A DNA stretch of 61,406 nt, counting the filler. It is 7 parts of 7 records of this genome, joined end to end, with 100 filler letters (N's around TTAATTAATTAA, not from the genome) between each part and the next. Parts side by side here need not be neighbours in the genome. Positions count along the whole stretch, not along the records: positions 23,165 to 48,177 come from SRR20825010_1985; 6 more parts are not named here. One strand, given 5' to 3'. The notes under the pieces are model-generated. The model was given only the letters and a program-made list of their open reading frames with translations, did no database searches and was not told the DNA's origin. Every line of letters starts with the position of its first letter. Within the stretch, counting starts at the first letter, position 1. Positions 14,067-43,814 of this stretch are shown here, one piece after another. Position numbers and translations under genes: made by a program.

Positions 14067-14166
14067 NNNNNNNNNNNNNNNNNNNNNNNNNNNNNNNNNN
14101 NNNNNNNNNNTTAATTAATTAANNNNNNNNNNNNNNNNNNNNNNNNNNNNNNNNNNNNNNNNNNNN
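14067..14166. other. artificial contig spacer (N-run / TTAATTAATTAA / N-run)
   Basis: 100-nt spacer with the six-frame stop linker at 14111-14122. Confidence 0.98.
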
Positions 14167-19271: not shown

Positions 19272-19322
19272 CCTCCCGGGCGGCCGCCAAAACCCCCGCA
19301 TCCGCAACAGGAAGGCATCATC

Positions 19323-20060
19323 GTGTCATCCCGCTCTTTCAATTTGCCAACGCCTTTCCGTGCGGTCGTCATCGGCGGTACCGGCGGCATTGGCGGCGCC
19401 ATTTCCGAGGCTTTTCTAGAGCTCGGCGCCGAGCTTGTCGCAACCGGCGCATCCGAGGCGGAAATCGGCGCTTCGGCGCTTTCCGGCCGTAACGGCGTCA
19501 CGCTCGCATCGCTGGATGTCACCGATGATGCGGCCGTGAAAGCCCTTGCCGCGCAGTATGATCGCGTCGATGCCCTGATCAATTGCGCCGGCATTCTGCG
19601 GCGGGACGAGGAATTCGATATCGCGGTGTTCCAGAAGGTGATCGACGTGAACCTCACCGGGGCGATGCGCTGCTGCACGGCTTTTCGTTCGGCCCTTGCC
19701 GCCGCAAAGGGATCGATCGTCAATATCGCTTCCATGAATGCGTTCGCAGCCCTGCCGCGGCTGCCGGCCTATTGCGCGTCCAAGGGCGGGCTGGTGATGC
19801 TGACCCGTGCGCTCGCCCATGCCTGGGCCGAGGAGGGCATCCGCGTCAACGCCGTTGCGCCGGGTTATATTGAAACCGCGATCAACGCCGAGGGGCGCAA
19901 GGACAGCGAACATTACAACCGCATTGCCGCCCGCACCGCGCTGAAGCGCTGGGGAAAGCCGGATGACGTTGCCGGCACGGTCGTCTATCTGTGCATGCCG
20001 GCGGCGGGCTATGTAACCGGCAGCGTCGCCATGGTCGACGGCGGCTTTCTGGCCGGGTGA
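19323..20060 (+). CDS. short-chain dehydrogenase/reductase
   Basis: GGTGGIG, NCAG, YCASK, VNAVAPG and DGG motifs. Confidence 0.93.
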   Translation: MSSRSFNLPTPFRAVVIGGTGGIGGAISEAFLELGAELVATGASEAEIGASALSGRNGVTLASLDVTDDAAVKALAAQYDRVDALINCAGILRRDEEFDIAVFQKVIDVNLTGAMRCCTAFRSALAAAKGSIVNIASMNAFAALPRLPAYCASKGGLVMLTRALAHAWAEEGIRVNAVAPGYIETAINAEGRKDSEHYNRIAARTALKRWGKPDDVAGTVVYLCMPAAGYVTGSVAMVDGGFLAG

Positions 20061-20069
20061 GGGGAACCG

Positions 20070-20939
20070 ATGAGCAGGAATGAAGAACATCGAGGGCAAC
20101 TGGCGGCCATGTCGCTGCCGGCGCTCCTATTCACCATCGGCATGATCGCCTTTCCGGTGGTCTATACGGTGTGGCTGAGCTTCCAGAGCTTTTCGTCCAC
20201 GGGGCAGGTGCGCGGATACGGAGCCGTCAATTTTGTCCGCATGGTGGGTGACGACCAGTTCTGGAACGGCATCTGGGTCACCTTCTACCTCTATTTTCTG
20301 TCGCTTGCCCTGCAGCTCGTGCTTGGCACCGGGCTGGCGCTGCTGCTGTTCCGCGCCAAGCGGCTTCCCGGCATCATCCGCTCGCTGTTCATTTCGCCGT
20401 TCATGATCCCGCCGGTGGTGGCCGGCATGATGTGGCTGGTGATCCTTGATCCGTCGCTGGGCGCCGCCAATTACATCCTGACCTCGCTTGGCCTTCCGCC
20501 ATCGGCATGGCTTGCCTCGCCCATGTGGGTGGTGCCGACGCTGGCGATGATCGATACCTGGCAGTGGACGCCCTATGTCGCGCTGATCGTGCTTGGCGGG
20601 CTGCAATCGCTGCCGCCCTCTGTCTACGAGGCCGCCGAAATCGATGGCGCGCCACGCGGAAAGGTGTTCTGGCGCATCACGCTGCCGTTGCTGCTGCCGA
20701 CGCTGGTGACCGCGATGGTGCTGCGCTCGGTCGACCTGCTGCGCTTTTTCGACCTGATCTACATCACCACCCAGGGCGGCCCTTCCGACCGCTCGATGAC
20801 GCTCAACATCTACGGCTTCCGCACCGGCTTCGAGTTCTTCCAGCTCGGCTATGCGAGCGCGTTGATGATCACGCTTTCGGCGCTCGTCTTCGGGGCGGTG
20901 ATTGTCCTCAACCGGCTTCGCGCCGCGGTGGAGTGGTAA
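20070..20939 (+). CDS. carbohydrate ABC transporter permease 1
   Basis: Multiple TM segments, WQWTP and EAAEIDGA (EAA loop), ITLPLL. Confidence 0.93.
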   Translation: MSRNEEHRGQLAAMSLPALLFTIGMIAFPVVYTVWLSFQSFSSTGQVRGYGAVNFVRMVGDDQFWNGIWVTFYLYFLSLALQLVLGTGLALLLFRAKRLPGIIRSLFISPFMIPPVVAGMMWLVILDPSLGAANYILTSLGLPPSAWLASPMWVVPTLAMIDTWQWTPYVALIVLGGLQSLPPSVYEAAEIDGAPRGKVFWRITLPLLLPTLVTAMVLRSVDLLRFFDLIYITTQGGPSDRSMTLNIYGFRTGFEFFQLGYASALMITLSALVFGAVIVLNRLRAAVEW

Positions 20940-20940
20940 G

Positions 20941-21768
20941 ATGAGTAACAGACCTTCCGATTCCCGCTGGCTCGACGGCGTCAATATCGTGCTTCTGGTG
21001 CTGGCCGGCATGATCGTCATGGCGCCGACGGCGTGGATGATCCTGTCCTCGTTCAAGCACAGCTACGAGGTCACGGCCTATCCGCCGACGCTGATCTTCG
21101 AACCGACGCTGGAAAACTACCGTACCCTCAACAGCACCGTGCCGTTCGTGCGCTACACCATCAACTCGCTGGTGGTGACGATCGGCTCGACCACCCTTGG
21201 CCTGCTGCTCGGCGCGCCGGCAGCCTTCGTCGCCTCGTGGACGCGGATCACCTGGCCGGCGGTGGTGACGCTGATGGCGCGGATGGCGCCGGGCACGCTG
21301 TTCCTGCTGCCCTGGTATGTGATGTTTCGCCAGGTCGACATGATCGGCAGCTACTGGGCGCTGATCCTGACCCATGCCGTCATCACCATGCCGGTGGTGA
21401 TCTGGGTGCTGCTGCCCTATTTCGACGGCATTCCGCGCTCGGTGTTCGAGGCGGCCCAGGTCGATGGCTGCTCGCCGGCGCGGATTTTCCGGCGCATCGC
21501 CCTGCCGCTGGTGTCTTCAGGGCTTGCGGTCTCGGCGATCCTGGCCTTCATCTTCTCCTGGAATTTCTTTCTGTTCGCGCTGGTGCTCAGCAATTCCAAG
21601 ACCAAGACGCTGATTGCCGCCTCCTTCAATTTCATAGGCGAGGGCTCGACCAATTGGGGCGGGCTGATGGCTGCGGCGACGATTATCGCGCTGCCGCCGC
21701 TGATCCTCGCGGCTGTCGTCCAGCGCTGGCTGATTTCGGGCCTGACGCTCGGTGCGGTGAAAGGATGA
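20941..21768 (+). CDS. carbohydrate ABC transporter permease 2
   Basis: PTLENY, EAAQVDGC, FIFSWN and a [10 protein letters not shown]-terminus. ATG 20941 follows the previous stop. Confidence 0.93.
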   Translation: MSNRPSDSRWLDGVNIVLLVLAGMIVMAPTAWMILSSFKHSYEVTAYPPTLIFEPTLENYRTLNSTVPFVRYTINSLVVTIGSTTLGLLLGAPAAFVASWTRITWPAVVTLMARMAPGTLFLLPWYVMFRQVDMIGSYWALILTHAVITMPVVIWVLLPYFDGIPRSVFEAAQVDGCSPARIFRRIALPLVSSGLAVSAILAFIFSWNFFLFALVLSNSKTKTLIAASFNFIGEGSTNWGGLMAAATIIALPPLILAAVVQRWLISGLTLGAVKG

Positions 21769-22778
21769 CCATGACGATTTCCAACGAAGCTCCCGCCATG
21801 CGCGCCGCTGATTTTCAGGGCGACGACCGGATCGCGATAGTGACCGTTCCGCGTCCGGTTCCGGGTGAAGGCGAGGCGCTGGTGAAGATCGCCCGCACTG
21901 CGCTGTGCGGTTCCGATTTCAAGCTCTGGCATAATGGTTCGCAGCATATCGCCGGCCACGAGATCGCCGGCTATGTGGAACAGCCCGGCCACAAGCTCGA
22001 TGGCCGCCTGTGCGCGATATATATTCCGCTTCATTGCGGGCATTGCGATCCCTGCAAGGCCGGCCACACCCAAAGCTGCGTCACGGTTTCCTCGCTGATC
22101 GGCTGGAACCGCGATGGCGGATATGCCGAATATGTCACGGTCCCCGACAATTGCCTGCTGCCGGTGCCCGACGATATCGCGGACGATCTCGCGCCGCTGC
22201 TGCTCGACACGATCGGCACCTCCGCCCACGCGTTGCGCGAGGCGGGCCGTCATCTTGCCACCGAACGACCGAAAGTGCTGGTCACCGGTGCCGGGCCGGT
22301 CGGCCTTGGTGTTGTGCTCGCGGCGCAAGCGCTTGGCTATGACGCCGTGCATGTCTCCGAGCCCAATCCGGAACGGGCAAGGCTTGCGGAGGAATTCGGC
22401 GCCATCCTCGTTCCGGTCGGGAGCAAAGAGCATCGTTTCGACCTCATTGTCGAATGCTCGGGCAACCATGCGGCGCGCAATCTGGCGATCGAACTGGTCC
22501 TGCCCAAGGGGGTGATCGTGCTGGTTGGCGAGAATGCCGCGCCGTGGACCATCACCGAGGACAAGGTCTTCCGCCGCAAGGATTTCGTGATGCTGCGCAC
22601 CTTCTATTTCCCCAAGGGCGATTTCGACGCCAATGTCGAACTGCTGCGCGCCAACCGGGAAAGATACGCCCGCTTCGTCGATGACGCCTTTCCGCTTGAT
22701 GCGCTGCCGGAAAAGTTCGCGCATTTCGCTGAAGGCCGCTCGATCAAACCTGTCCTGTCATTCGGGGAGCAAAGCTGA
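21765..22778 (+). CDS. Zn-dependent (MDR) alcohol/polyol dehydrogenase
   Basis: CGSD and GHE catalytic Zn ligands, CGHCDPC...C structural Zn site, GAGPVG. The true start is an ATGA overlap at 21765; the 581-aa ORF is a 5' over-extension. Confidence 0.9.
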
Positions 22779-23064
22779 TGGCTTCGATCTCGGTCCGCAA
22801 TCTCGTCAAGAGCTATGGCCAGCACGAGGTGATTTCAGGCCTCAACCTGGAAATCGCCGATGAGGAATTCATCGTGCTCGTCGGGCCGTCTGGCTGCGGC
22901 AAGTCGACGTTGCTGCGCATCATGGCGGGGCTGGAATCGATCAATGGCGGTGAGCTGAGGATTGGCGACAAGCTGGTCAACAATACGCCCGCCGCCAAGC
23001 GCGATATCGCCATGGTGTTTCAGGACTACGCGCTCTATCCGCATATGACGGTGCGCCAGAACAT
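22778..23064 (+). CDS. sugar ABC transporter ATPase (MalK/UgpC type), truncated
   Basis: GPSGCGKST and [18 protein letters not shown]. Confidence 0.92.
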
Positions 23065-23164
23065 NNNNNNNNNNNNNNNNNNNNNNNNNNNNNNNNNNNN
23101 NNNNNNNNTTAATTAATTAANNNNNNNNNNNNNNNNNNNNNNNNNNNNNNNNNNNNNNNNNNNN
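23065..23164. other. artificial contig spacer
   Basis: N-runs with TTAATTAATTAA at 23109-23120. Confidence 0.98.
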
Positions 23165-24593
23165 AGATTGTTCGAATCCGAGGTGCCAAGTCCATCACCA
23201 TTCCACTCGCCGTTCCACCAGAAAGCGAACCAATGATGTAGACCGACGGAATCCGGTCACCACAGACCGCAGCCAAGTGATCAATCGATTCGCGAAGCCC
23301 CGAGTCGATGGTTTTCGCGTGATCAATCATCGCCAACCGACCCAATGGACGCATGCCTTCGGTCGTACCGCTGCGAGGCACGTTGTAAATCCAACGACGT
23401 GACAACGATCGGAAGTGATCAGTCCGTCCTTCGCGGTATTGCTGAGCCGATTTGAGCGGTGTGTGCAGAATTGTCGCCGGCGGAATGCGGTCCGATGCTT
23501 CTGCCAAACGAGCCGCGTGAATGGTATGCATGTCCGTGTCGATCAACACCGAATGCAAATCCAAGGGGCATGCACTATGCAAGGTCGCAACGCGGCTACG
23601 CAGTTCATGCAAGCATTCTGCTCCGACGCCACCAACGGCGACCACCAAGGCGTGTCCCGTCACACGGGCGTGGACCATCGCCTTTCCCGACTTCAGACTT
23701 GGCAAGTCTTCGACGGCTTCCTGGCGAGTCCGAATGCTTGGTTTGGTCGAAGTATGGATGGCCGTCTCATCGCGACCACGGGTCGTTCGCAAAGCTTCGA
23801 CGAAGTCCTTGCACGAGTCGAAACGACGTTCCGGGTCTTTCTCCAATGCTCGCGCCACCGCCACACGATCGGCTGCTGGCAATGAATCCAACACGGGTGC
23901 GGCATGGATGTGCTGCGTTGCCAATTGCGCAATCGTACGACCGGAGAATGGACGCGTACCGGTCAACAACTCTTGATACATCACCGCGAGCGAATACTGA
24001 TCGCTGTTGATGCATGGCCGACCGTCAAACAACTCCGGCGGAGCGTAGATGGGTGTCAATCCGCCAATCACCGAGTGATCGATCTCTCGCAGATCTTTGA
24101 GTAACCCAAAGTCACCGACTTTGACGTGCCCACCGACCAACAACAAATTTCCTGGCTTCACGTCGAGGTGCTGCAGTTGATAGCTGCCGTGCAAGTAATC
24201 CAAAGCATCCGCTGCATCGTGCAGATACGACAACAAAGCAGCCCGGGGAATGCCGCACGAACCACGGTCTTGGTGTCGTTTCAATACGTCTTCGAGCGAT
24301 CCGTCAGCCAGTTCCGTGACGATCACCAAGCGATCGTCCACGATTCCAAATCGCTCCAGAGTCAACAGAAACGGGTGGTGAACTCCCTTGATTCGCTCCA
24401 ACGATTTCAGCTCACGCGAACCGCGTCTGGCGTCGTTGGCACCAAACACAAACTTGACCGCTTTCTTCAATCCGCCTGGCGCATTGGCCAACCAAACTTC
24501 ACCAAAGCCGCCTTCACCAATCTTTTTCTCCAGCGTGTAGCCGGTGATTGGTTCGTATCCGGGAGCGATCGTTTGGGTTGTCTTGACGGTCAT
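23165..24593 (-). CDS. Ser/Thr protein kinase fused to a tubulin/FtsZ-like (Tubulin_2/FtsZl1-type) domain, truncated at the 3' end
   Basis: Kinase motifs: IGEGGFGEV, KAVK, HLDVKPGN, DFG, YAPPE. Then VVAVGGVG, LIDTD, GMRPLGRLA and GSLSGGTASG, matching tubulin/FtsZ loops T1, T2, T3 and the T4 signature. Confidence 0.85.
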
Positions 24594-24735: not shown

Positions 24736-26136
24736 CTAGAGAGCACTGAAGTAACTACGGCATGCTTGATCGAGGTACTCCGGACGTAACGTCAAAGGCA
24801 ATCGACGGTAACGACAGAAGTTAGCGACCTGCGTCAGCAAATCTCGCGGGTGGCATCGACGCGGTGGTCGATTGTTTTGCTTGTAGTAGGCGAGCAAATG
24901 GTTGGCGGCTTCGGGTGTCTCAGGGAAACCCATTTGCGAAGCGACTGTTTTCATGAGCGACCGAAACTCGTCGGGCGACGGGTCGTTCACAAAAATCTTG
25001 TAGGGGACGCGGCGAAGAAACGCTTCGTCAACAAGGTCGTCCGGGTTCAAATTGGTCGAGAACAAGATGAGCTGCTCAAACGGGATCTGAATCTTCTTAC
25101 CCGTTGGCAACGTCAAGTAATCGCATCGATTTTCCAGCGGCACAATCCACCGGTTGAGCAACTCTTCCGGAGCAATTCGTTGACGACCAAAGTCATCGAT
25201 CAACAGACAACCGCAGTTGCTTTTCATCTGAAGCGGTGCTTCGCAGATATTGGATCGATGATCGTGGCGAACTTCGAGGTTCTCCATTACCAATTCACCG
25301 CCAACAACGACGCTGGGTCGTTGAATTCGCACCCAACGCTTGTCCCATTCTTGCGCCTTCAACAACTGACCGTCGCCTTCCGGCACAGGCGCTTCTTGGT
25401 GATAGGCATCGTCTTTGACTTTGATCAAATTGCCGTCATCCAGAATCGCATGGGGGATCCAGATTTCCTGTCCCAAACACTGGGTCAAGCTTCGAGCGAT
25501 GGTGGTCTTTCCATTGCCGGGAGGACCGAACAGGAACATCCCAGTGTTGCTATTGATCGCGGGACCAATCTGGTCGAGCAATTCGTCCTGGTAGGAGATC
25601 TTCGAAAGTGAAGCTTGCAAATCATCTCGCTCGATGGGATCGACACCGGCGGCTTGAGCTTCCACGCTGAGTGTGTAATCAGCCAATGGCACGGGTGCTG
25701 GCCCGATGTAGCTGCATTGCTGAAGGTGAGTCTGCGCCCGCTTTTGTCCCAGTTCGGTCAGCGAGTAGTAATAGTCGTTGAACGCTGCCGGTCGCACGTG
25801 AGCAACAAACTTGCGAGTCCGAAGCGCATCAACGATGGGTTCCACCAAACGAAACGGCAATCCCATCATCGTCGCCACATTGCGACCGCTGATGGTTCCG
25901 ATTTGATGAATCGACTTGATCGTCAACGCTTCGATAAAGCTGACCGACAGGCCGAGTTCATTCAGCGAGCGGGGTTCCGCCGGCCAAAACGTATCGTCCG
26001 TCAACAAACCGCCCAACGCGGCTGATTCGAAGTTGTGTGTGTCGGTTAGCAGGGCATTCATGCGTGAAGCAAGCATTTGGAGTTGTTTGCATTGGTTCCG
26101 AACAACCCACCCCAGCGGGACGAGATCGTTGGCCAT
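24736..26136 (-). CDS. uncharacterised AAA-family ATPase with a probable N-terminal winged helix
   Basis: GPPGNGKT Walker A, LLIDDFGRQ Walker B, FSTN sensor 1 and DEAFLRR arginine finger. The start may be at 26076. Confidence 0.85.
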   Translation of the reverse strand: MANDLVPLGWVVRNQCKQLQMLASRMNALLTDTHNFESAALGGLLTDDTFWPAEPRSLNELGLSVSFIEALTIKSIHQIGTISGRNVATMMGLPFRLVEPIVDALRTRKFVAHVRPAAFNDYYYSLTELGQKRAQTHLQQCSYIGPAPVPLADYTLSVEAQAAGVDPIERDDLQASLSKISYQDELLDQIGPAINSNTGMFLFGPPGNGKTTIARSLTQCLGQEIWIPHAILDDGNLIKVKDDAYHQEAPVPEGDGQLLKAQEWDKRWVRIQRPSVVVGGELVMENLEVRHDHRSNICEAPLQMKSNCGCLLIDDFGRQRIAPEELLNRWIVPLENRCDYLTLPTGKKIQIPFEQLILFSTNLNPDDLVDEAFLRRVPYKIFVNDPSPDEFRSLMKTVASQMGFPETPEAANHLLAYYKQNNRPPRRCHPRDLLTQVANFCRYRRLPLTLRPEYLDQACRSYFSAL

Positions 26137-27039: not shown

Positions 27040-27293
27040 CGCGAGCGGTTCAGCAGGATTCGAAAAGATACAAAAAAGACAAAAGGTACAATCGTGCCGG
27101 TTGCATCGATCGGTGCAAGGTAACCGAAACGGAAAGCGATCGGCGAGCGGGTCAGTCGATCTGACTGACTAGCGAACCCCAGTGGTGCCTCAAACCAACC
27201 AAAGATTCTTGACTCAGATTGCTGCCACGTCAGCTTCGGTCATGCATCTCCCCGCTGGGTCAGCCGATTCTTTTCCGAGAGAGACCGCCGTCG

Positions 27294-28070
27294 ATGCCGA
27301 TCCCGTTGCTCAGCCCGGCCGATCAAAGCCACTGGGGATTGTTCCGCCAACCATTCGCCGATTCTCCCGCGGTGAACGTTCCATCGCGGCCAGATGAGTT
27401 TCTATACGCGTCCGCAGAACATTCGCAGGCTCGGATCTGGTTGGAAACCATTCTGCGAAACAAGGTCGGAATCGCGAAGTTGAACATCTGCCCGGGAGTT
27501 GGCGCAACCACGTGGGCCAGACAGTGGATGGCAACACACGGTTTGGCTGATCTACCGCTGGACGTTTTGGGAACAGAGGCAACAAAATTTGACCATGACG
27601 TTTGTCAGCAATGGCTGTCGATTGCAAGAAGCAATCGGCCCCTTGGCATTCACACGTTGTGCATCGTCGACGGAACACCCGACCAGGCAACGATTCAGTG
27701 GTACAAGCAGTCCTTGAAGCTCGATCCGCGATGCAGCCCAATGACGTTGCTCCTGATGGGTCCAGAAACCTCTTCTGGCGTCAGTTATACCATGAGCGTT
27801 TCCACAGATTCGCTTGCCCGTTGTCTCGCAGCAGCGCTGTCACACGCCGGTCAGCTCCGACCTCGCGTCACCGAAGACGCCGTGAAGCTGATCGCTGAAT
27901 GGGCCAACGAAGACTATCGTCAACTGGCGTTTTGGACGCACGTCGTGTTGGCATGGGGAGCACGCGAAAGATGTCAACATATCGACGAACGAACGATCCA
28001 TCGGCTGGATCAACAACGCCAAGCTTGGACTTCTGAAACAGCTGCTCAGCGGAGCTCGGCTGCGGCCTGA
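27294..28070 (+). CDS. hypothetical protein resembling a degenerate ExeA/GspA-type ATPase
   Basis: N-terminal HWGLFRQPF, a Walker-A-like PGVGATT lacking Lys, CIVDG, LLLMG and C-terminal TEDAVKLIAEWA..YRQL. The start is uncertain (27219 or 27294). Confidence 0.5.
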   Translation: MPIPLLSPADQSHWGLFRQPFADSPAVNVPSRPDEFLYASAEHSQARIWLETILRNKVGIAKLNICPGVGATTWARQWMATHGLADLPLDVLGTEATKFDHDVCQQWLSIARSNRPLGIHTLCIVDGTPDQATIQWYKQSLKLDPRCSPMTLLLMGPETSSGVSYTMSVSTDSLARCLAAALSHAGQLRPRVTEDAVKLIAEWANEDYRQLAFWTHVVLAWGARERCQHIDERTIHRLDQQRQAWTSETAAQRSSAAA

Positions 28071-28651
28071 TCAACGAACGTCACTCGCCACGAATGTGGT
28101 TGGTGGTCGCTTTCGTCCGGGTCAAAAGAATGATCCGCCGCGAAAGATTCGAAGTCGGAGGGGACAAACGTTCCGCGATTGATGATCCGCGAATAGACGG
28201 GATCGACTTGTTTGTACCCCGAATCCAGCGGTGTCAAACAATGGTCATCGCTCCATGCGGCACCAAGTTCGCTTAAGTCGTCGACCGTGCCATTTTGGTT
28301 ATCATCCCAGCCGTCCCAACCTGGTTTGCCATCGGCACCCGACACGATCCACACTTCCGCGTTGGGATCGAATCGCTGAACAGAATCAAGCTTCCATGAT
28401 CGAGATGCAGCAACCGATGGCTCTGTCGAGCTGGCATCACCAAAATACGCCAACACCTGAACGCTATGCAGGTTCTGCGGACCGGAGACATGTCCGCGTG
28501 TCTTCAGTTCATCAGTGATTTGGCGGAGCAACTCGGTGCGAGTCACGTCGGCAACCGAGGTGGAATTGGTCACGCCGGCGGACAGCCACAACCCACGCCA
28601 AACGCATCCCACTACAACGACAACAACCATCAAGACGTTGCCGCGATTCAT
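28046..28651 (-). CDS. hypothetical exported/membrane protein with a Gly/Asp-rich motif
   Basis: Hydrophobic N-terminus and GADGKPGWDGWDDNQNGTVDDLSELG. The ATG overlaps the upstream stop. Confidence 0.65.
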   Translation of the reverse strand: MNRGNVLMVVVVVVGCVWRGLWLSAGVTNSTSVADVTRTELLRQITDELKTRGHVSGPQNLHSVQVLAYFGDASSTEPSVAASRSWKLDSVQRFDPNAEVWIVSGADGKPGWDGWDDNQNGTVDDLSELGAAWSDDHCLTPLDSGYKQVDPVYSRIINRGTFVPSDFESFAADHSFDPDESDHQPHSWRVTFVDQAAAELR

Positions 28652-30411
28652 GAACCCTCTCGCAATCGATCAAAGTATTCACGGGTTTGTTCACGTTCGT
28701 CACGAGGCAAGACCTGATCTTCGAGTGGATCACCTTCTTCGCTGAGGTTCGACTCGATCGCCGACTGGATGTCTTCGCGGGTCACACCTTTTCGGTTGGG
28801 ACCGTCCGCAAAACCAGCGATGATTGCTCGTCCGCGTTTGACCTTGCCGCGAACCTGAGTGTCGTAGGTGTTGACGTCCGTTTCTTCTTCGGGTCGGTCT
28901 CCTTTACCCTTGCCGCGTCCCATTCCCATCCCTGGTTCTTCGCCCTCACCAAATCCCTGACCCTGGCAGGCTTGGCAACCATCGCCATTGCATTGTTTGC
29001 AGTTCATTTGGTTCTTGGACTGCGACAGGTCACCCAGGGCCGATTCCAAATCTTCCAGCTCGGACATGGCCATTTGCATGTCGCCCAACTGACTGGACAT
29101 TTCTTCCATCGCTTGAGCAGCTGCGGATTCATCGCCTTGCTGCATCGCGTCGGCGGCTTGCTGCATCGCATCAGCCATCTTCTGCATTTGCTGCATCTGT
29201 GCATCGGCTGATTCAGATTCGTTCAGTTTCTGCTGCAACTTGGCGGCCTCTTCGTTGCGTCCTTCTTTTTTGGCCTGTTCGATCTTCTCTCGCAATTGCT
29301 TCTTTTTCTCTTCGTGGTTCTTTGCAGCCTCTTTCATCTGCTCTGCCATCTTTTTGATTTGCTTGTTCAGCTTTTCTTTCTGCTGATCGGTGAGCTTGCC
29401 ATCTTTCACTTGCTTTGCGAGCTTTTTGATCTCTTCCGCAGCTTTGCCAAACTCACCCTTTTGGATCTGCGACAAAACCTTTTCGGCCGGACCGCCATCG
29501 AGCCCCTTCATCTGAGCGAGCGTCTTTCGCATCTCTTCCGGCGACCCCAGTCGGTCCTTGCGAGCTTGAATTTGTTCTTTGATGTCGTTGAGTTCCAGCA
29601 ACGCGTCCTTGCGTTTCAACGTTTTGCTTTCGGTGATCTTGTCGAGTTGCGATTCCATCTTCTCGAACAGTTCGCGTGCCTCGAGTAAGCCCTTCGCATC
29701 GGCTTCTCGCTTTTGTTGAGCCAAACGTTTCTTCAGCTCCGCGGCGGCGATTTTAACTTGTCGAACTTCGCTCGCGTTGACTTCGTTGTTCAGCTCGGAA
29801 GTGATTTCGGTTGCCGGCTCGATCGCGAAAACCAAGACGGCCAAAATCGGGACAATCGCCAGCGGCAACCAAGAAACTCGCTGAGGTGACAAAGCAAACT
29901 TCTCCGCCACGTCCAGCTTGCTGGCTCGTCGGGCGGCATCCTGCCGGAGTGCGTTCCCGGCCGCGGATTTTCCATCCGTCGAATCATCGGATGACAATGC
30001 GCTGCTCAAACGTTCTTTCAATCCGAATCGAGAATCGACTTCGGCAGCGACTCGCATGACCGATGGAGCCGAGACCATCGTCACGATCGCGGACACAATC
30101 ATGGAAACCACGGTGGCAGCCACGATCCATCCCATCGCCCATTGCTGCACCGTCAACGGGGAGGCTCCAACTTCGGATGATTCCAATCCGAAGCGATCCA
30201 GCGGCAACGGAGTGATTGCCATCGCACCGACCGCAATCGTTGCGACAATCAAACCAACAAACCAAGTTACAGCGAACGTGCGTCCAAACTTCCCAAGCAT
30301 CATTCGCCTGCGAGCGGAACGAACCTTCGATTCCACTTTGGACTTGGCTTCCTCGGGCGACCACTGGGTCAACTCGTCGTGCGGATCCTGCGATGGGGCG
30401 ACGCTGGTCAT
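28648..30411 (-). CDS. membrane-anchored long coiled-coil protein with a CxxCxGxGCxxCxGxG motif
   Basis: Three TM segments, VDSRFGLKERLSSAL, an extended K/E/Q/M-rich coiled coil, CKQCNGDGCQACQGQG and a C-terminal LP..ERE..REYF. The likely start is ATG 30411. Confidence 0.8.
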   Translation of the reverse strand: MTSVAPSQDPHDELTQWSPEEAKSKVESKVRSARRRMMLGKFGRTFAVTWFVGLIVATIAVGAMAITPLPLDRFGLESSEVGASPLTVQQWAMGWIVAATVVSMIVSAIVTMVSAPSVMRVAAEVDSRFGLKERLSSALSSDDSTDGKSAAGNALRQDAARRASKLDVAEKFALSPQRVSWLPLAIVPILAVLVFAIEPATEITSELNNEVNASEVRQVKIAAAELKKRLAQQKREADAKGLLEARELFEKMESQLDKITESKTLKRKDALLELNDIKEQIQARKDRLGSPEEMRKTLAQMKGLDGGPAEKVLSQIQKGEFGKAAEEIKKLAKQVKDGKLTDQQKEKLNKQIKKMAEQMKEAAKNHEEKKKQLREKIEQAKKEGRNEEAAKLQQKLNESESADAQMQQMQKMADAMQQAADAMQQGDESAAAQAMEEMSSQLGDMQMAMSELEDLESALGDLSQSKNQMNCKQCNGDGCQACQGQGFGEGEEPGMGMGRGKGKGDRPEEETDVNTYDTQVRGKVKRGRAIIAGFADGPNRKGVTREDIQSAIESNLSEEGDPLEDQVLPRDEREQTREYFDRLREGS

Positions 30412-30617
30412 GGATAGCTCCGTGGGTGCCCGAAGTTGTGAACTTGGAACGAGTGCGGTTCGATTCTTATCATTATAGCGCGGCGAACGCTTTTCCCGCA
30501 CGCCGAATCTGGCTCCCGACAGCAGAATCTGTGCGGCGGAGTCCGTGCCGTTCCTCAAATTCGCCGTTGAACGAGAATCCTATCCGGCGGGTTCGCCAGT
30601 GACGTACACTTCCATAC

Positions 30618-37928: not shown

Positions 37929-39590
37929 ATGCCTCGCAGTCGTCTCGGTCCGCTCGCCATTGAATCCCCGCTGGGTCCCGATCCGTCGGCGAGGGACGCG
38001 CGTGTTTGGCGTGCTGTGCACATCAAAATGCGAAAAGCGGTGGCCGTTCGCGTCTTCCAAATGCCATTTGGCGGAACGCAAGAATCGCGACAGGCTTTCG
38101 CGGAAGAATGGGATCGCCTCAAACGGCTTGATCATCCAGCGATCGTCAAATGCTACGGCGGCGGCTTTGAAGAGTCAGAAGCCTACCTGGCTCATGAGTT
38201 GGTCGAAGGATCCACTTTGGCCGAAGAGATCCAGCGTCGAGGTCGATTGCCTTGGGAATCGGTTCTAGAACTTGCGGAACCTCTGATCGATGCGTTGATG
38301 TATCTGCACGACCGCGACATCGTTCACGGAAGAATCACCCCTGACAAAGTCATCATCGCTGGGCTGAGTCCGGTCTTGATCGATGTTCGCGACGTCGACG
38401 GAACGCCTCCCTTTCGAAGCGGTCCGTACCACGTTTCGCGTCCACCATCGATCGGCCAAATGATGCGGTCGGCTCCGGAGGCCCCCACGCCAAACGATCC
38501 GGTGACCGCCCGCACCGACCTCTATCTGTTCGGTGCGTTGCTATACGAAGCACTCACAGGTGCCCCGCCGATCACTGGTTCCACCGTTCAAGAAGTCACC
38601 AGCAACCTGAAATATCAGTCGCCAACTTCCGTGGCTTCCACCGTGATGGAATGCCCCGTGTGGATGGATCGATTGGTAATGCAGTTGCTCAACAAAGATC
38701 CCGGACAACGCCCGGTGTCGGCTGCCGCGGTCAAGCTCCAGCTAGCCGAAGTCCGCAAACGTTCCATGTCTCGCAGTGGTGTCGCCGAGCATGCCTCGAG
38801 TGGTTTCAGTCCGTTGTCGGTGACGGACGATGCGGATCGGAAAGAAGCCCGCAAGCTGCTGGGGCGAAAGGAAATCGAAGCGGAGGTTGATTCGATTCCG
38901 GATGCGACACCGTGGCACGATCAAGCATTGGTGCTGCTACCAATCCTGGCTTTGTTGATCGGCATATTGGTATGGGTCGCTTGGCCAATGAACGAATCAA
39001 AGATGCGAAACGAAGCAGAGGAGTTGCTAGCACAAGACACACGCTCGTCGATGTCGCAAGCTCGCATCAGTTACCTGGAACCAATGTTGGCTCAATTCCC
39101 GGATGGAGAACACTCCGAATGGGCGGCCGAACAAATTGACCGCGTGCGAATGGTCGAGGCTGAGCATGCTTTGACAGTCAAGATGAATCGCAACTTGCCT
39201 CTCCAGAACGAAGCCGAACGCCTGGTTGCCGAGGCCATGCGGTATGAAACGTTCGGAGACAATGCCACCGCAGTCGACAAATACCAATCGATGATCACGG
39301 TGCTCGGAGACGAAGAACAATACAAACCATTGGTCAATCTCGCCCGCAACCGCATTGCGCAGATCTCACAGGCGGACACCAACCAAACCGAAGCCGCCCG
39401 GATCATCACGGACCGGCTGAAAGAAGCCGACCGTATGTTCGTCGAAGGGCGAACCATCGCGGCGCGGAAGATCTGGTACAGCATCGAAGAACTGTATGGG
39501 TCCAATGCGGCTGTCGAACCGCTCGTTGCCACCGCACAAAGTCGATTAGCGGAAACATCTGCCGGTGCCGCCGTCGACAAACTTCCTTAG
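37929..39590 (+). CDS. membrane-spanning Ser/Thr kinase-like protein (probable pseudokinase)
   Basis: Kinase fold visible (LDHPAIV, ELVEGSTL, APE, DLYLFGALLYEALTG, DPGQRP) but the catalytic motifs are altered. One TM segment and a helical C-terminal domain follow. Confidence 0.82.
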   Translation: MPRSRLGPLAIESPLGPDPSARDARVWRAVHIKMRKAVAVRVFQMPFGGTQESRQAFAEEWDRLKRLDHPAIVKCYGGGFEESEAYLAHELVEGSTLAEEIQRRGRLPWESVLELAEPLIDALMYLHDRDIVHGRITPDKVIIAGLSPVLIDVRDVDGTPPFRSGPYHVSRPPSIGQMMRSAPEAPTPNDPVTARTDLYLFGALLYEALTGAPPITGSTVQEVTSNLKYQSPTSVASTVMECPVWMDRLVMQLLNKDPGQRPVSAAAVKLQLAEVRKRSMSRSGVAEHASSGFSPLSVTDDADRKEARKLLGRKEIEAEVDSIPDATPWHDQALVLLPILALLIGILVWVAWPMNESKMRNEAEELLAQDTRSSMSQARISYLEPMLAQFPDGEHSEWAAEQIDRVRMVEAEHALTVKMNRNLPLQNEAERLVAEAMRYETFGDNATAVDKYQSMITVLGDEEQYKPLVNLARNRIAQISQADTNQTEAARIITDRLKEADRMFVEGRTIAARKIWYSIEELYGSNAAVEPLVATAQSRLAETSAGAAVDKLP

Positions 39591-39981: not shown

Positions 39982-42564
39982 ATGTGGCAAGCGTGGTACG
40001 AATATCGCATCGACTACGCTTTGTTCACCATCGTGTTCTTAGTCGGGCACTCCTCCATCCTTTCGCGCGTCCGACGGGCAATGCCGCCGCCTTCCACGAC
40101 GCACCCGGAAACATCCACCTCTCCCGAAGCGATTGGTTCCGGCTTGCGGACGAGGCTGTCATTCTGCATTCTCGTCTTGTTGCTGATCGGTGGTTTCATA
40201 GCGGTCGAAACCGCGGACCGTGTCCAGCGATCGCGAATGCGACAACAAGTTTTCGGAATTGCACCAACCTATGCGGCCGAGTTGCAACAGCTTGGGCATG
40301 CGAACATCGACGAGCAAACATCGCCGGATGATCCGCAATACCTTCGCATGATTGAGGCTCAGAAACGTTGGTTATCGGTCAATCCACAAGTCACCGACAT
40401 CTACACCATGCGGCGGGTCACAGAGTTGGATTTGTCCACCCGTCCGTTGCCCGATCGCGAAAACAACAACGGACATCTCTACAAAATCATCGTCGACTCA
40501 GAGACCGACTATAGCGGCGATGGAAGGATTGAAGGCGTTCGAGAAAGTCGCACTGAGATCGGCGAGATTTTTTCTGACAGCAGCGTCGAGCAAATCGAAC
40601 AAGCTTTCCGCGGAGTGACAACTTTTGCCAATCAACCCAGTCGAGACCGATGGGGGAAATGGGTTTCCGCTTACGCGCCTCTATTTGATGCCGATGGGAA
40701 GGTTGAGTCGTTGGTCGGAGTCGATTTCCCCGCCGAAAACTACATCCATTCGATCATCCTGACCCGGCTCGGTGCGATGGGAATCATTGCCGCACTCATC
40801 ACTCTGTTTTTGGGTGCAGTCACCAGCATTGGAATGCTGAAGGCTGGAATCGTTGCCCAACAGCGCAGCCACGCTCTGTTACAAGACCAGCGTGATTTGG
40901 CCACCCAGGCCGCCGCGCAAGCCCGGCAAGCGGCCATCATCAAGAATCAATTCCTGGCCAACATGAGCCACGAAATCCGAACGCCCATGCACGGCATTTT
41001 GGGAACCGCCGAACTGATGACCCGCAGTTCGCTCGATGAGCAACAGCGACACTACATGTATATGATTCAGACCTCGGCAAAAGGTCTGCTCACCGTACTG
41101 AACGACATCCTCGATTTCTCGAAGGTCGATTCAGGACAGATGACGTTGGAATCGGTTCCGTTTGAGTTGAAGGATCTTCTCAGCCAAACGATGCACGCCG
41201 TTGTGAATCTCAAGAACGAAGAGGTCGATCTGCAATTCCAACCGCCCGTCGGAGTCCCCGAAATCATTGTCGGTGACCCCACACGACTCCGTCAGGTCCT
41301 GATCAATCTGGTCGGAAACGCTCTGAAGTTCACCGAACAGGGCCGAGTCACTGTAACCGTCGAGAACGAAACGCGAGACGCGACGACGTTGGACACATCG
41401 GATTCGAAAGGATCTCGCATCGCATTCACGATCACCGACACCGGTATCGGCATGACGCAGCAACAGCAGGCCAAGATCTTTGAGGCATTCACTCAAGGCG
41501 ACTCATCCACGACGCGACGGTTCGGCGGAACCGGATTGGGTTTATCAATCAGTTCGCAATTGGTGGAGTTGATGGGTGGACGTCTGCAGGTCAGCAGTGT
41601 TCCAAACGAAGGCAGCAGCTTTCGCTTCGACATCCCGTTGCGGACAACCAATGGGGTGGAGCCTCACGAGATTGCGAAGACACAGCCGCTCGAGACGTCC
41701 ACCAAGTCATTTGGTCAGTGCGACCAACCGCGTGAACTATTGCTAGTTGAAGACGGTGCCATCAACCGCACCGTCGCGGAAACCATGCTGCGTTCGAGAG
41801 GTCATCGTGTGACATCCGTTTCCAATGCGAAAGACGCAATCGAACAACTCCGATTGCATTCATTCGACCTGGTTCTGATGGACGTGCAAATGCCTGAAAT
41901 TGACGGTTTGACGGCGACTCAGATCATTCGAAACGACTTGCCTGCTCCGGCCAGCGAGGTTCCCATTGTCGCATTGACCGCCCATGCAATGCGTGAAGAC
42001 CGACAACGATGCTTGGACGCGGGGATGAATGATTGCCTTACAAAGCCCTATCCGCCGGAGGTTTTGTTTGAAACAATCGAATCGTTCGCCACTCATACCG
42101 ATAACCAAGATGACTTGGTTTCTTCGCCTCAATCAATCGAAAAGTCACCTTCAACCAATGTTGACGAACCGTCGGCCGAACCATTGAACCGCGAGGTGAT
42201 CCTTCACAATGTTGGCGGTGATTTGCAGGTGCTCGCCATGTTGGTCCAAACCATCACGGATGAATTGCCACCACAAATGCAAAGGCTTCAACAAGCCATC
42301 GAAGTGGGCGATTCAACTCAAATTGCACGAGCCGCACACACGTTAAAAGGAACCGCTTCGGCAATCGGTGCGACGCGGGCTCAAGAAATCGCTGACAGGT
42401 TGGAAACCTTTTCTTCTGGGGAAACGTCTCAAGAGAAGTCCTCGCATTTTTTCAACAATCAGATGAAAGCACTCGCTAGTGCCTTCGATTTGGCCCAAAC
42501 TGAACTGAAGAAGTTTCTGCGTTCTTCATCCGGAAGAGAAAACCCCGGAAACGAAACACTATGA
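39982..42564 (+). CDS. hybrid sensor histidine kinase (TM sensor-HisKA-HATPase-REC-Hpt)
   Basis: [49 protein letters not shown]; Hpt AAHTLKG. Confidence 0.95.
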
Positions 42565-43814
42565 AATTGCTGATCGCTGACGACAATCCAGTTTGGCGAA
42601 ACCTGATTTCGGCGGCTGTCGAAAACTGGGGCTACCGGATCGAGCTGGCTTCGGATGGGAACGAGGCTTATGAGCTTCTTCAGTCCGACGACCCGCCTCG
42701 GTTGGCGTTGCTCGATTGGTTGATGCCGGGGATGGAGGGAGTCGAAATCTGCCGCCGGATCAAACAGGATCCCGAAAACCCATTCACCTATATCATTCTG
42801 CTCACCAGTCGCGATCGCGACGAAGACATGATTCAGGGTTTGGACGCGGGCGCCGACGACTATTTAACAAAACCAATTGTCGCGCCGCTTTTAAAGAGCC
42901 GCCTGACCGCCGCGAGGCGGATTGTCGAAGCCGTTCCACCGATGAAGTGGACGAAACCTCAAATCGAAGGCTTCGACATTGATCATCTGATCGGACGAGG
43001 AGCCTTTGCGACCGTGTGGAAAGGCATGCATCGTGCCTCGGGCAAACCGGCAGCGATCAAGATCATTCGCGCGGACCTGGCAACCGATTTGGTCTTCGAA
43101 CGGTTCGCTCGCGAAATTCAGGTGATGCGAAAAATGGATCATCCGGGAATCGCAACCATCTATGCGAGCCATCTAGAACGCGACCTTGCTTACTACGCGA
43201 TGGAATTGATCGATGGCGAGTCTTTGGCGAATTACATCGCTCGGGAATCTCCCCGTGCGACTCGCATCATCGAGATGATGGCGATGGTTTGCGATGCATT
43301 GCAACACGCGCACGATCATGGTGTGATCCATCGAGACGTCAAACCATCCAACATCATGGTGGGTCCCGACGAACAACCCAAGTTGGTTGATTTTGGATTG
43401 AGCAAATCCATGTTCCGAACCAAATCACCAGTGTCGGCAAACAGCACCCACGATGGCGCTGTCCTGGGTACACCACTTTACATGTCACCGGAACAAGCCC
43501 GCGGTGACGCAAATAGCGTCGATCATCGATCGGACCTTTACGCAGTCGCAACGATGCTTTATCTGTTTCTGCTTCGAGAGCACCCGCACGGTGCACTGTC
43601 GCTGAGCCGCGAAGAAACGATCGATGCGATTGCGAACACCGATCCGCGACCGGCGACCGAAATCAATCCCAAGTTCAACCCGAAACTCGAATCCATCCTG
43701 TCTCGATGTCTGTCCGACGATCCCGAGGAACGCCCCCAGTCCGCGGGCCAATTGGCTCAAGAGCTTCGAGATTTCCTCAACGATCGTGCTGCGCTGCGAA
43801 CGCAAACTCTTTGA
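42561..43814 (+). CDS. response regulator receiver domain fused to a Ser/Thr protein kinase
   Basis: REC: LIADD, LLDWLMPG, LLTS, DDYLTKP. Kinase: IGRGAFATV, AAIK, HRDVKPSN, DFG, GTPLYMSPEQ. ATGA overlap with the kinase gene. Confidence 0.93.
   Translation: MKLLIADDNPVWRNLISAAVENWGYRIELASDGNEAYELLQSDDPPRLALLDWLMPGMEGVEICRRIKQDPENPFTYIILLTSRDRDEDMIQGLDAGADDYLTKPIVAPLLKSRLTAARRIVEAVPPMKWTKPQIEGFDIDHLIGRGAFATVWKGMHRASGKPAAIKIIRADLATDLVFERFAREIQVMRKMDHPGIATIYASHLERDLAYYAMELIDGESLANYIARESPRATRIIEMMAMVCDALQHAHDHGVIHRDVKPSNIMVGPDEQPKLVDFGLSKSMFRTKSPVSANSTHDGAVLGTPLYMSPEQARGDANSVDHRSDLYAVATMLYLFLLREHPHGALSLSREETIDAIANTDPRPATEINPKFNPKLESILSRCLSDDPEERPQSAGQLAQELRDFLNDRAALRTQTL

Follow-up and report, generated by a model that had tools for sequence, protein, structure and literature searches.

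The 61,406-nt stretch of DNA analysed here (the window) consists of seven contigs, and at the low end of one of them (23165-48177) it carries the 5' part of a gene in which a Hanks-type Ser/Thr kinase is fused to an FtsZl1/Tubulin_2 domain, which belongs to the most divergent branch of the tubulin superfamily. The entire gene, recovered from the nearest genome (G001), is a single-copy gene of Pirellulaceae type and encodes a multidomain protein of 1079 amino acids (aa), in which the kinase is followed by a GTPase-like domain with a predicted FtsZ/tubulin fold. The fusion itself is not a discovery, since the architecture is described by both Makarova & Koonin 2010 (PMC2875224) and Santana-Molina et al. 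2023 (PMC9871819), and has therefore been published since 2010. To this literature we add a confident fold model that extends the similarity with FtsZ through an H7-like helix, which the sequence analysis of 2010 left unplaced, a phyletic pattern that makes an essential role in division less likely, and the identification of an AAA+ ATPase and an FHA-EAL protein as conserved partners, from which a testable signalling hypothesis follows. The explanation that we favour, although tentatively, is that the protein forms a phosphorylation-controlled, nucleotide-dependent scaffold wired to cyclic di-GMP (c-di-GMP) signalling, and that it is an accessory protein rather than an essential replacement for FtsZ.

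The gene fragment occupies positions 23165-24593 on the minus strand. From the ATG at 24593 translation gives 476 residues with no stop up to the contig end, representing the 5' 44% of the full gene (residues 1-476 of 1079). On the same strand the kinase domain extends over 23823-24539 (residues 19-257), a linker with variable alignment columns and predicted disorder over 23658-23822 (residues 258-312), and the first half of the FtsZl1/Tubulin_2 GTPase-like domain over 23165-23657 (residues 313-476). Pfam matches to the fragment are far beyond chance, both for Pkinase (residues 19-257, expectation value (E) 8.7e-30, 104 bits against a cut-off of 31.7) and for Tubulin_2 (PF13809, residues 316-475, E 1.8e-14, 54.2 bits against a cut-off of 27). 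A preliminary description of the sequence had recognised the same fusion from the letters alone and proposed these two profiles as a check. All of the motifs it quoted are present within about 10 bases of the places it gave, namely GEGGFG (24518-24501), AVK (24461-24453), HLDVKPGN (24170-24147) and DFG (24113-24105) in the kinase, and IDTD (23543-23532), GMRPLGRLA (23357-23331) and GSLSGGTASG (23231-23202) in the FtsZ-like part; VVAVGGVG was also correctly read, but lies at 23645-23622 and not at 'about 23654'. Its assignment of the second domain to the FtsZl1/Tubulin_2 family agrees with both the Pfam score and the predicted fold.

To judge from its residues, the kinase should be catalytically complete. 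The glycine loop (GEGGFG, residues 26-31), the VAIK lysine (K47), the alphaC glutamate (E61), the HxD...N motif (H142-L-D144 and N149), DFG (D161-F-G) and the APE motif (A184-P-P-E187), which together characterise Hanks-type kinases, are all there, and G26, G28, G29, G31, K47, E61, H142, D144, N149, D161, A184 and E187 are invariant in 39 of 39 orthologs; the kinase had been called intact at the outset, and this bears the claim out. It does not belong to the RD (arginine-aspartate) class, since the motif reads HLD and L143 is likewise invariant in all 39 orthologs, and it is thus a non-RD kinase. Hanks-type kinases in general are numerous in G001, where 39 places match the kinase domain at E <= 0.001, indicating a very large Hanks-kinase complement.

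The remainder of the protein was taken from G001, whose product was reported as 100% identical to the fragment over 476 residues, with one S/T difference at residue 216 seen by eye. The G001 protein measures 1079 aa from the ATG shared with its orthologs and 1097 aa from an upstream GTG; the N-termini of 39 orthologs align at the ATG, which corresponds to 24593 in the window. Pfam recognises Pkinase (19-257, E 6.6e-29) and Tubulin_2 (316-551, covering model positions 1-268 of 356, E 1e-17, 64.9 bits against the same cut-off of 27) and no other family, while a search of the G001 genome finds Tubulin_2 at a single locus (68.2 bits), the sole tubulin-superfamily gene there. In a full-length AlphaFold2 (AF2) model (39 sequences, mean predicted local distance difference test (pLDDT) 79.2, predicted template modelling score (pTM) 0.53), the kinase is followed by a disordered linker (271-306, with pLDDT <50 at residues 271-290 and 303-306), a compact alpha/beta domain (313-610), a helical part of about 300 aa (614-926) that includes very long helices at 741-780, 786-840 and 892-926, a disordered segment (921-979) and, finally, a small, conserved alpha/beta domain modelled with confidence (980-1079). 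The ESM Atlas gave no usable match to this C-terminal domain (975-1079). In one relative (locus L057, G305:C1, 8335-11809, minus strand) a 710-aa open reading frame (ORF) containing the kinase and a full Tubulin_2 domain is followed by a separate ORF of 445 aa that has no Pfam match, which may be a split or frameshifted form of the fusion gene.

That the open frame stops at window position 23165 could be taken to mean that the gene is genuinely truncated in its source strain, that is, a pseudogene, but this is very improbable. The frame ends at an artificial, non-biological joint between contigs, made up of N44, TTAATTAATTAA and N44 (23065-23164). Three sequencing runs from three studies (X2, X3 and X6) each carry the ATPase gene and the entire fusion gene on a single contig, with 79-89 substitutions relative to G001 and no indels; X2, which contains all sampled words of the stretch, has the gene uninterrupted on a contig of 100,562 nt. 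Since these runs carry the entire gene without indels, the cut is an assembly break and, as had been supposed, the contig end is what truncates the gene.

The case for a tubulin-type fold comes from an AF2 model of residues 300-720 (45 sequences, pLDDT 86.4, pTM 0.71). Using Foldseek, the top matches of this model are FtsZ, CetZ, BtubA and TubZ (E from 3e-7, probability 1.00), with two dehydrogenases lower among the matches listed. VIA-align gives the closest agreement with CetZ1 (4b46; Z 18.7, root-mean-square deviation (rmsd) 2.7 A over 192 residues), with many FtsZ structures at Z ~17 and tubulin at Z 16.9; these matches span Z 16.3-18.7 over 185-230 residues at rmsd ~3 A, and 892 of 953 compared chains have Z of at least 8. 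Model residues 13-310 align with FtsZ residues ~11-230, an alignment that spans the GTPase domain and H7 and extends as far as T7/H8. Comparison with FtsZ and tubulin, which the preliminary description had proposed as a check on itself, thus returned a match. At the level of sequence, identity to the solved structures is 10-16%, and phmmer found nothing for the FtsZ-like part among PDB sequences (best E 0.32, to PrgI, a chance match).

Along the sequence the predicted elements are as follows. Strand S1 (313-320) leads into a T1 loop (G321-G322-V-G324) and S2 ends in I-D352-T-D; a conserved insert of 37 residues (378-414, SRRWIYNVPR...TEG) precedes H3 (RPLGR); S4 leads into a T4 loop (S458-G-G-T-A-S-G464); and the H7-like helix (563-592), with invariant Y570 and W572, is followed by a loop with an invariant R602. 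G321, G459, G460 and G464 show no variation among the 39 orthologs, with G322, G324 and T461 conserved in at least 90%, and G458, G459 and G463 (P0005 numbering) are at least 90% conserved in a wider set of 150 representatives, described below. GTP binding by this domain is plausible from these conserved loops. The protein shares with the Tubulin_2 family a profile score above cut-off, the T1 and T4 loops, and an FtsZ-like domain followed by a coiled coil and a C-terminal globular domain. A predicted complex of two copies of residues 300-720 with two GTP molecules (score 0.00, mark 0.32), for which the controls were not folded, is not evidence either way.

The genomic context was compared across 20 relatives' loci, with 8.5 kb inspected on each side. 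In the window, an AAA+ ATPase gene encoding 466 aa (24736-26136, minus strand) lies 142 nt upstream of the fusion gene on the same strand. The same gene is directly upstream and codirectional in 14 of the 20 loci and no more than 4.4 kb away in another, making 15 within 8.5 kb. Identity across loci is 49-80% for the ATPase against 38-59% for the fusion protein (from local alignments of unequal length), and 125 of 473 alignment columns are invariant among 13 orthologs of the ATPase. Its Walker A (GPPGNGKT), Walker B (LLIDDFGRQR), sensor (LFSTN) and FLRR motifs are conserved in orthologs, and it belongs to no named family, with weak Pfam matches to AAA, bpMoxR and AAA_5 and with unnamed 'AAA family ATPases' as its Atlas neighbours. 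The 142-nt gap shows no terminator-like site, and the ATPase is likely to be an operon partner of the fusion gene. We did not adopt a 'severing' role for it; the PDB matches that might suggest one (spastin, Msp1 and VCP) cover only a stretch of ~30 residues around the P-loop.

The second partner is a protein of ~375-450 aa that combines an FHA with an EAL domain and is encoded inside the 8.5-kb flanks at 19 of the 20 loci; the 10 of these proteins that were scanned all gave Pfam matches to both domains. In 14 loci its gene diverges from the AAA+ gene, and in the remaining five it immediately precedes the fusion gene. The EAL catalytic signature is kept in the AAA-linked group and degenerate in the other group (L048, L049, L050, L053 and L057), where, for example, DFAGG or GFAGG replaces DDFGAG and there is no E..E; judging by these substitutions, the degenerate proteins may be binders of c-di-GMP and not hydrolases. 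At some loci there are also genes for GGDEF, PP2C or additional FHA proteins, and the other flanks are housekeeping genes, such as those for tRNA synthetases, DapF, XseA and RsmE. The vWA and GTPase partners expected of an FtsZl1 protein are absent both from the 32 flanking ORFs of nine relatives' loci and from the window's contig. The partners that are conserved, the AAA+ ATPase and FHA-EAL, point instead to signalling.

In proposing how these components might work together, we envisage that the FtsZ-like domain would bind GTP and self-associate into a scaffold, aided by the coiled-coil region, while the fused kinase would phosphorylate either itself or the scaffold on threonine. The syntenic FHA-EAL protein would dock through its FHA domain on the resulting phospho-Thr sites, so that local breakdown of c-di-GMP would be coupled to the state of assembly, and the AAA+ ATPase, presumably co-transcribed, would remodel or disassemble the assembly. 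The module would then act as a signalling or morphogenetic switch, for instance in cell polarity or in the alternation of sessile and motile states.

Several observations weigh against this scheme. All of the structural support consists of predicted models. The T4 loop reads SGGTASG and not GGGTGSG (position 462 is A in this copy and G in the family consensus), an acidic T7 loop of FtsZ type was not recognised, the conserved residue past the H7-like helix being R602, and neither the VIA-align results nor the profiles contain a match to the C-terminal domain of FtsZ, so that FtsZ-type polymerisation is a possibility rather than an expectation. Each genome also contains 2-3 paralogs of the AAA+ ATPase at other places, and so adjacency need not signify a dedicated partner. 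The trio is also broken in the source organism, for the FHA-EAL gene is not in the window and its ortholog in G001 (C1:6880940-6882052, 75% identical) is 1.28 Mb away. Finally, an RNA library (run X1) yielded five contigs of 205-446 nt over the AAA+ gene and the start of the kinase, with 12-26 mismatches each; these come from a relative, possibly as DNA carry-over, and are too weak to serve as evidence of expression.

A more ambitious form of the proposal, which we consider unlikely, is that FHA-EAL, the AAA+ ATPase and the kinase-FtsZl1 protein constitute a previously undescribed, Pirellulaceae-wide module in which a phosphorylation-gated polymer scaffolds c-di-GMP turnover and is recycled by a dedicated AAA+ protein, and that the second domain of FtsZ is present in split form. 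Strand 600-608, which appears only in the full-length AF2 model, may pair with the C-terminal alpha/beta domain (980-1079), in which case the helical region of ~370 residues between them would be a giant insertion. Such a module would control polarity or the sessile-swimmer life cycle.

An alternative that we regard as possible, but less probable than the scaffold, is that the protein is a GTP-sensing kinase, in which a non-polymerising FtsZ-like module switches the kinase according to its GTP or GDP state and the helices serve only to dimerise. This would accommodate the conservation of the nucleotide loops where the acidic T7 loop and the FtsZ C-terminal domain are not recognised, and also the fact that the kinase is the best conserved portion of the protein in the 39-ortholog alignment. 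Homologs that lack a kinase are harder to reconcile with it. An exhaustive search with residues 300-720 returned 1052 cluster representatives at E <= 0.001, of which 187 remain at E <= 1e-30; among the best 150, counted with a hidden Markov model built from our own alignment, a kinase is present in 128. Thirteen of the 22 without one are 780-837 aa long, the remaining being fragments, and all six of those 13 that were read begin at or near the FtsZ-like domain, four of them with the same C-terminal motif. Since such forms retain the FtsZ-like and C-terminal domains, the FtsZ-like part appears to serve some purpose independent of the kinase. An assembly, moreover, accounts better than a simple switch for the long coiled coils and the neighbouring AAA+ remodeller.

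The scaffold must also be weighed against participation in biological conflict, a defence or abortive-infection-like system in which the kinase senses an invader and an FtsZ-like polymer is the effector. Kaur et al. 2020 (PMC7159879) proposed that neighbourhoods of tubulin, vWA and GTPase genes are conflict systems in which the tubulins are effectors that multimerise, the distribution of the fusion is patchy, and the AAA+ ATPase weakly matches the anti-phage ATPase IetA/IteA, if only around the P-loop. We nevertheless think this interpretation improbable, given that the vWA and GTPase genes are missing from the flanks surveyed above and that PADLOC and NCBIfam match only the generic kinase domain, all below curated cut-offs. 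The gene is in addition single-copy, with housekeeping flanks and a synteny conserved across genera.

The phyletic distribution bears on division. A sequence search found 109 homologs, 105 of which combine Pkinase with Tubulin_2; those named come from Rhodopirellula (the closest), Novipirellula, Rubripirellula, Stieleria, Roseiconus, Crateriforma and others. Within the family to which G001 belongs, 137 of the 201 genomes sampled have Tubulin_2, or 100 of 145 when only good genomes are counted, and querying with the fusion protein gives 135 of 201. Across the phylum it occurs in 13 of 301 sampled genomes, and the nine Tubulin_2 ORFs examined from outside the family have no kinase and match the Pfam model over its full length. 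Given these figures, the kinase fusion looks largely confined to one family, in which it is common but not universal: Tubulin_2 was not found in 45 of the 145 good genomes, and whole genera are without it (0 of 3 in each of two genera, for example).

It is tempting to see in this protein a division or budding cytoskeleton that replaces the missing FtsZ under the control of its kinase, and the preliminary description had suggested relevance to FtsZ-less division. In keeping with its statement that Planctomycetes lack canonical FtsZ, no match to PF00091 or PF12327 was found in G001 (99% complete), whereas 13 of 14 control genomes match, and the fusion is the only gene of the tubulin superfamily in G001. 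The connection with division is weak, however, because the lineages without Tubulin_2, including the 288 of 301 genomes across the phylum in which it was not found, must all divide. An essential role is unlikely while about one-third of good family genomes are without it, and on the same grounds we set aside the notion of a missing division protein, to which we give the least credence of the functional readings considered here. Its partners belong to signalling and not to the cell wall or division, and the authors of the 2010 study themselves judged a direct role in division unlikely (PMC2875224).

Other features of the window are recorded here for completeness. Linkers of N44-TTAATTAATTAA-N44 begin at 14067, 19172, 23065, 48178, 53665 and 56868. 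The GC (guanine plus cytosine) fraction is ~0.63 in contig 19272-23064 and 0.53-0.57 over most of the contig carrying the fusion gene; only 25% of sampled words of the window are found in G001, and the contigs may derive from more than one organism. Just past RsmE and upstream of the AAA+ gene are three ORFs that are not conserved beside the fusion gene in relatives (27219-30558): two adjacent ORFs of 283 and 201 aa with no family match (27219-28651), and a 636-aa protein with only weak coiled-coil matches to Rad50 and ZorA-like proteins (28648-30558, minus strand). Another Hanks kinase is encoded at 37929-39590 on the plus strand. Also on the plus strand, a hybrid histidine kinase (HisKA, HATPase_c, REC and Hpt; 39982-42564) overlaps by 4 nt a gene in which a receiver domain is fused to a Hanks Ser/Thr kinase (42561-43814), and the pair resembles a two-component phosphorelay with a eukaryotic-like kinase as its output.

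The FtsZl1 family was defined by Makarova & Koonin 2010 (PMC2875224), who explicitly describe an N-terminal kinase in four planctomycete members, find Ser/Thr kinases to be frequent in FtsZl1 operons, and remark on kinases 'implicated in FtsZ phosphorylation'. Their table includes RB10367 of Rhodopirellula baltica SH 1 ('Pirellula sp'), a 1097-aa 'serine/threonine protein kinase', as an FtsZl1 protein with no neighbours listed; an FHA protein is already given as a neighbour for two species, and a vWA operon partner, present in the majority of FtsZl1 members, is not tabulated for the planctomycete entries. Santana-Molina et al. 2023 (PMC9871819) repeat that planctomycete Tubulin_2 proteins have a kinase at their N-terminus. 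Our literature search, which did not cover subscription journals, found no experimental work on FtsZl1/Tubulin_2, only these two analyses and the conflict-system paper of 2020, in agreement with the preliminary description, which had called the family essentially untested; nor did it find any mention of RB10367, and this gene and its neighbouring locus tags are not in two supplements of a transcriptome paper on stress in R. baltica. With gene and architecture already catalogued, the fusion ranks low as a discovery, but as a real and conserved union of a Hanks kinase with this branch of the tubulin superfamily it is a reasonable target for planctomycete cell biology.

Compared with the kinase-fused planctomycete subgroup of FtsZl1 (PMC2875224), the protein has the same order of FtsZ-like domain, coiled coil and C-terminal domain, and when the G001 gene is read from its upstream GTG it has the same length as RB10367, 1097 aa. 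It differs from typical FtsZl1 members in having no vWA, GTPase or OmpA partners, while its AAA+ partner does not appear in the neighbour table of the 2010 paper, and its C-terminal domain is alpha/beta in our AF2 model rather than mostly alpha-helical as described there. Non-fused planctomycete FtsZl1 proteins match the full Pfam model (E 1e-27 to 1e-67), whereas the fusion protein matches only the N-terminal three-quarters or so (positions 1-270 of 356 in this comparison, E 1e-18). The tubulin-vWA-GAP1 systems of Actinobacteria and Firmicutes (PMC7159879) similarly join a divergent tubulin domain to a coiled-coil or helical C-terminal region, but the present protein carries a kinase in the same chain, its gene has FHA-EAL and AAA+ neighbours, and vWA, GAP1 GTPase and FNIII components are missing. 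With FtsZ, CetZ, tubulin and TubZ the protein shares the predicted GTPase fold through the H7-like helix, the glycine-rich T1 and T4 loops and the NTD-like 'DTD' after S2; it departs from them in its 37-residue insert, in having long helices in place of the FtsZ C-terminal domain, and in matching neither PF00091, even at E <= 1, nor FtsZ_C (PF12327).

A final parallel is provided by Actinobacteria, in which the Ser/Thr kinases PknA and PknB control FtsZ together with FHA-domain proteins. There are differences, in that the planctomycete kinase and FtsZ-like domain form one polypeptide and the FHA reader is fused to EAL; the logic would nonetheless be the same, a Hanks kinase acting on an FtsZ-type protein and an FHA domain reading the phospho-Thr that results.

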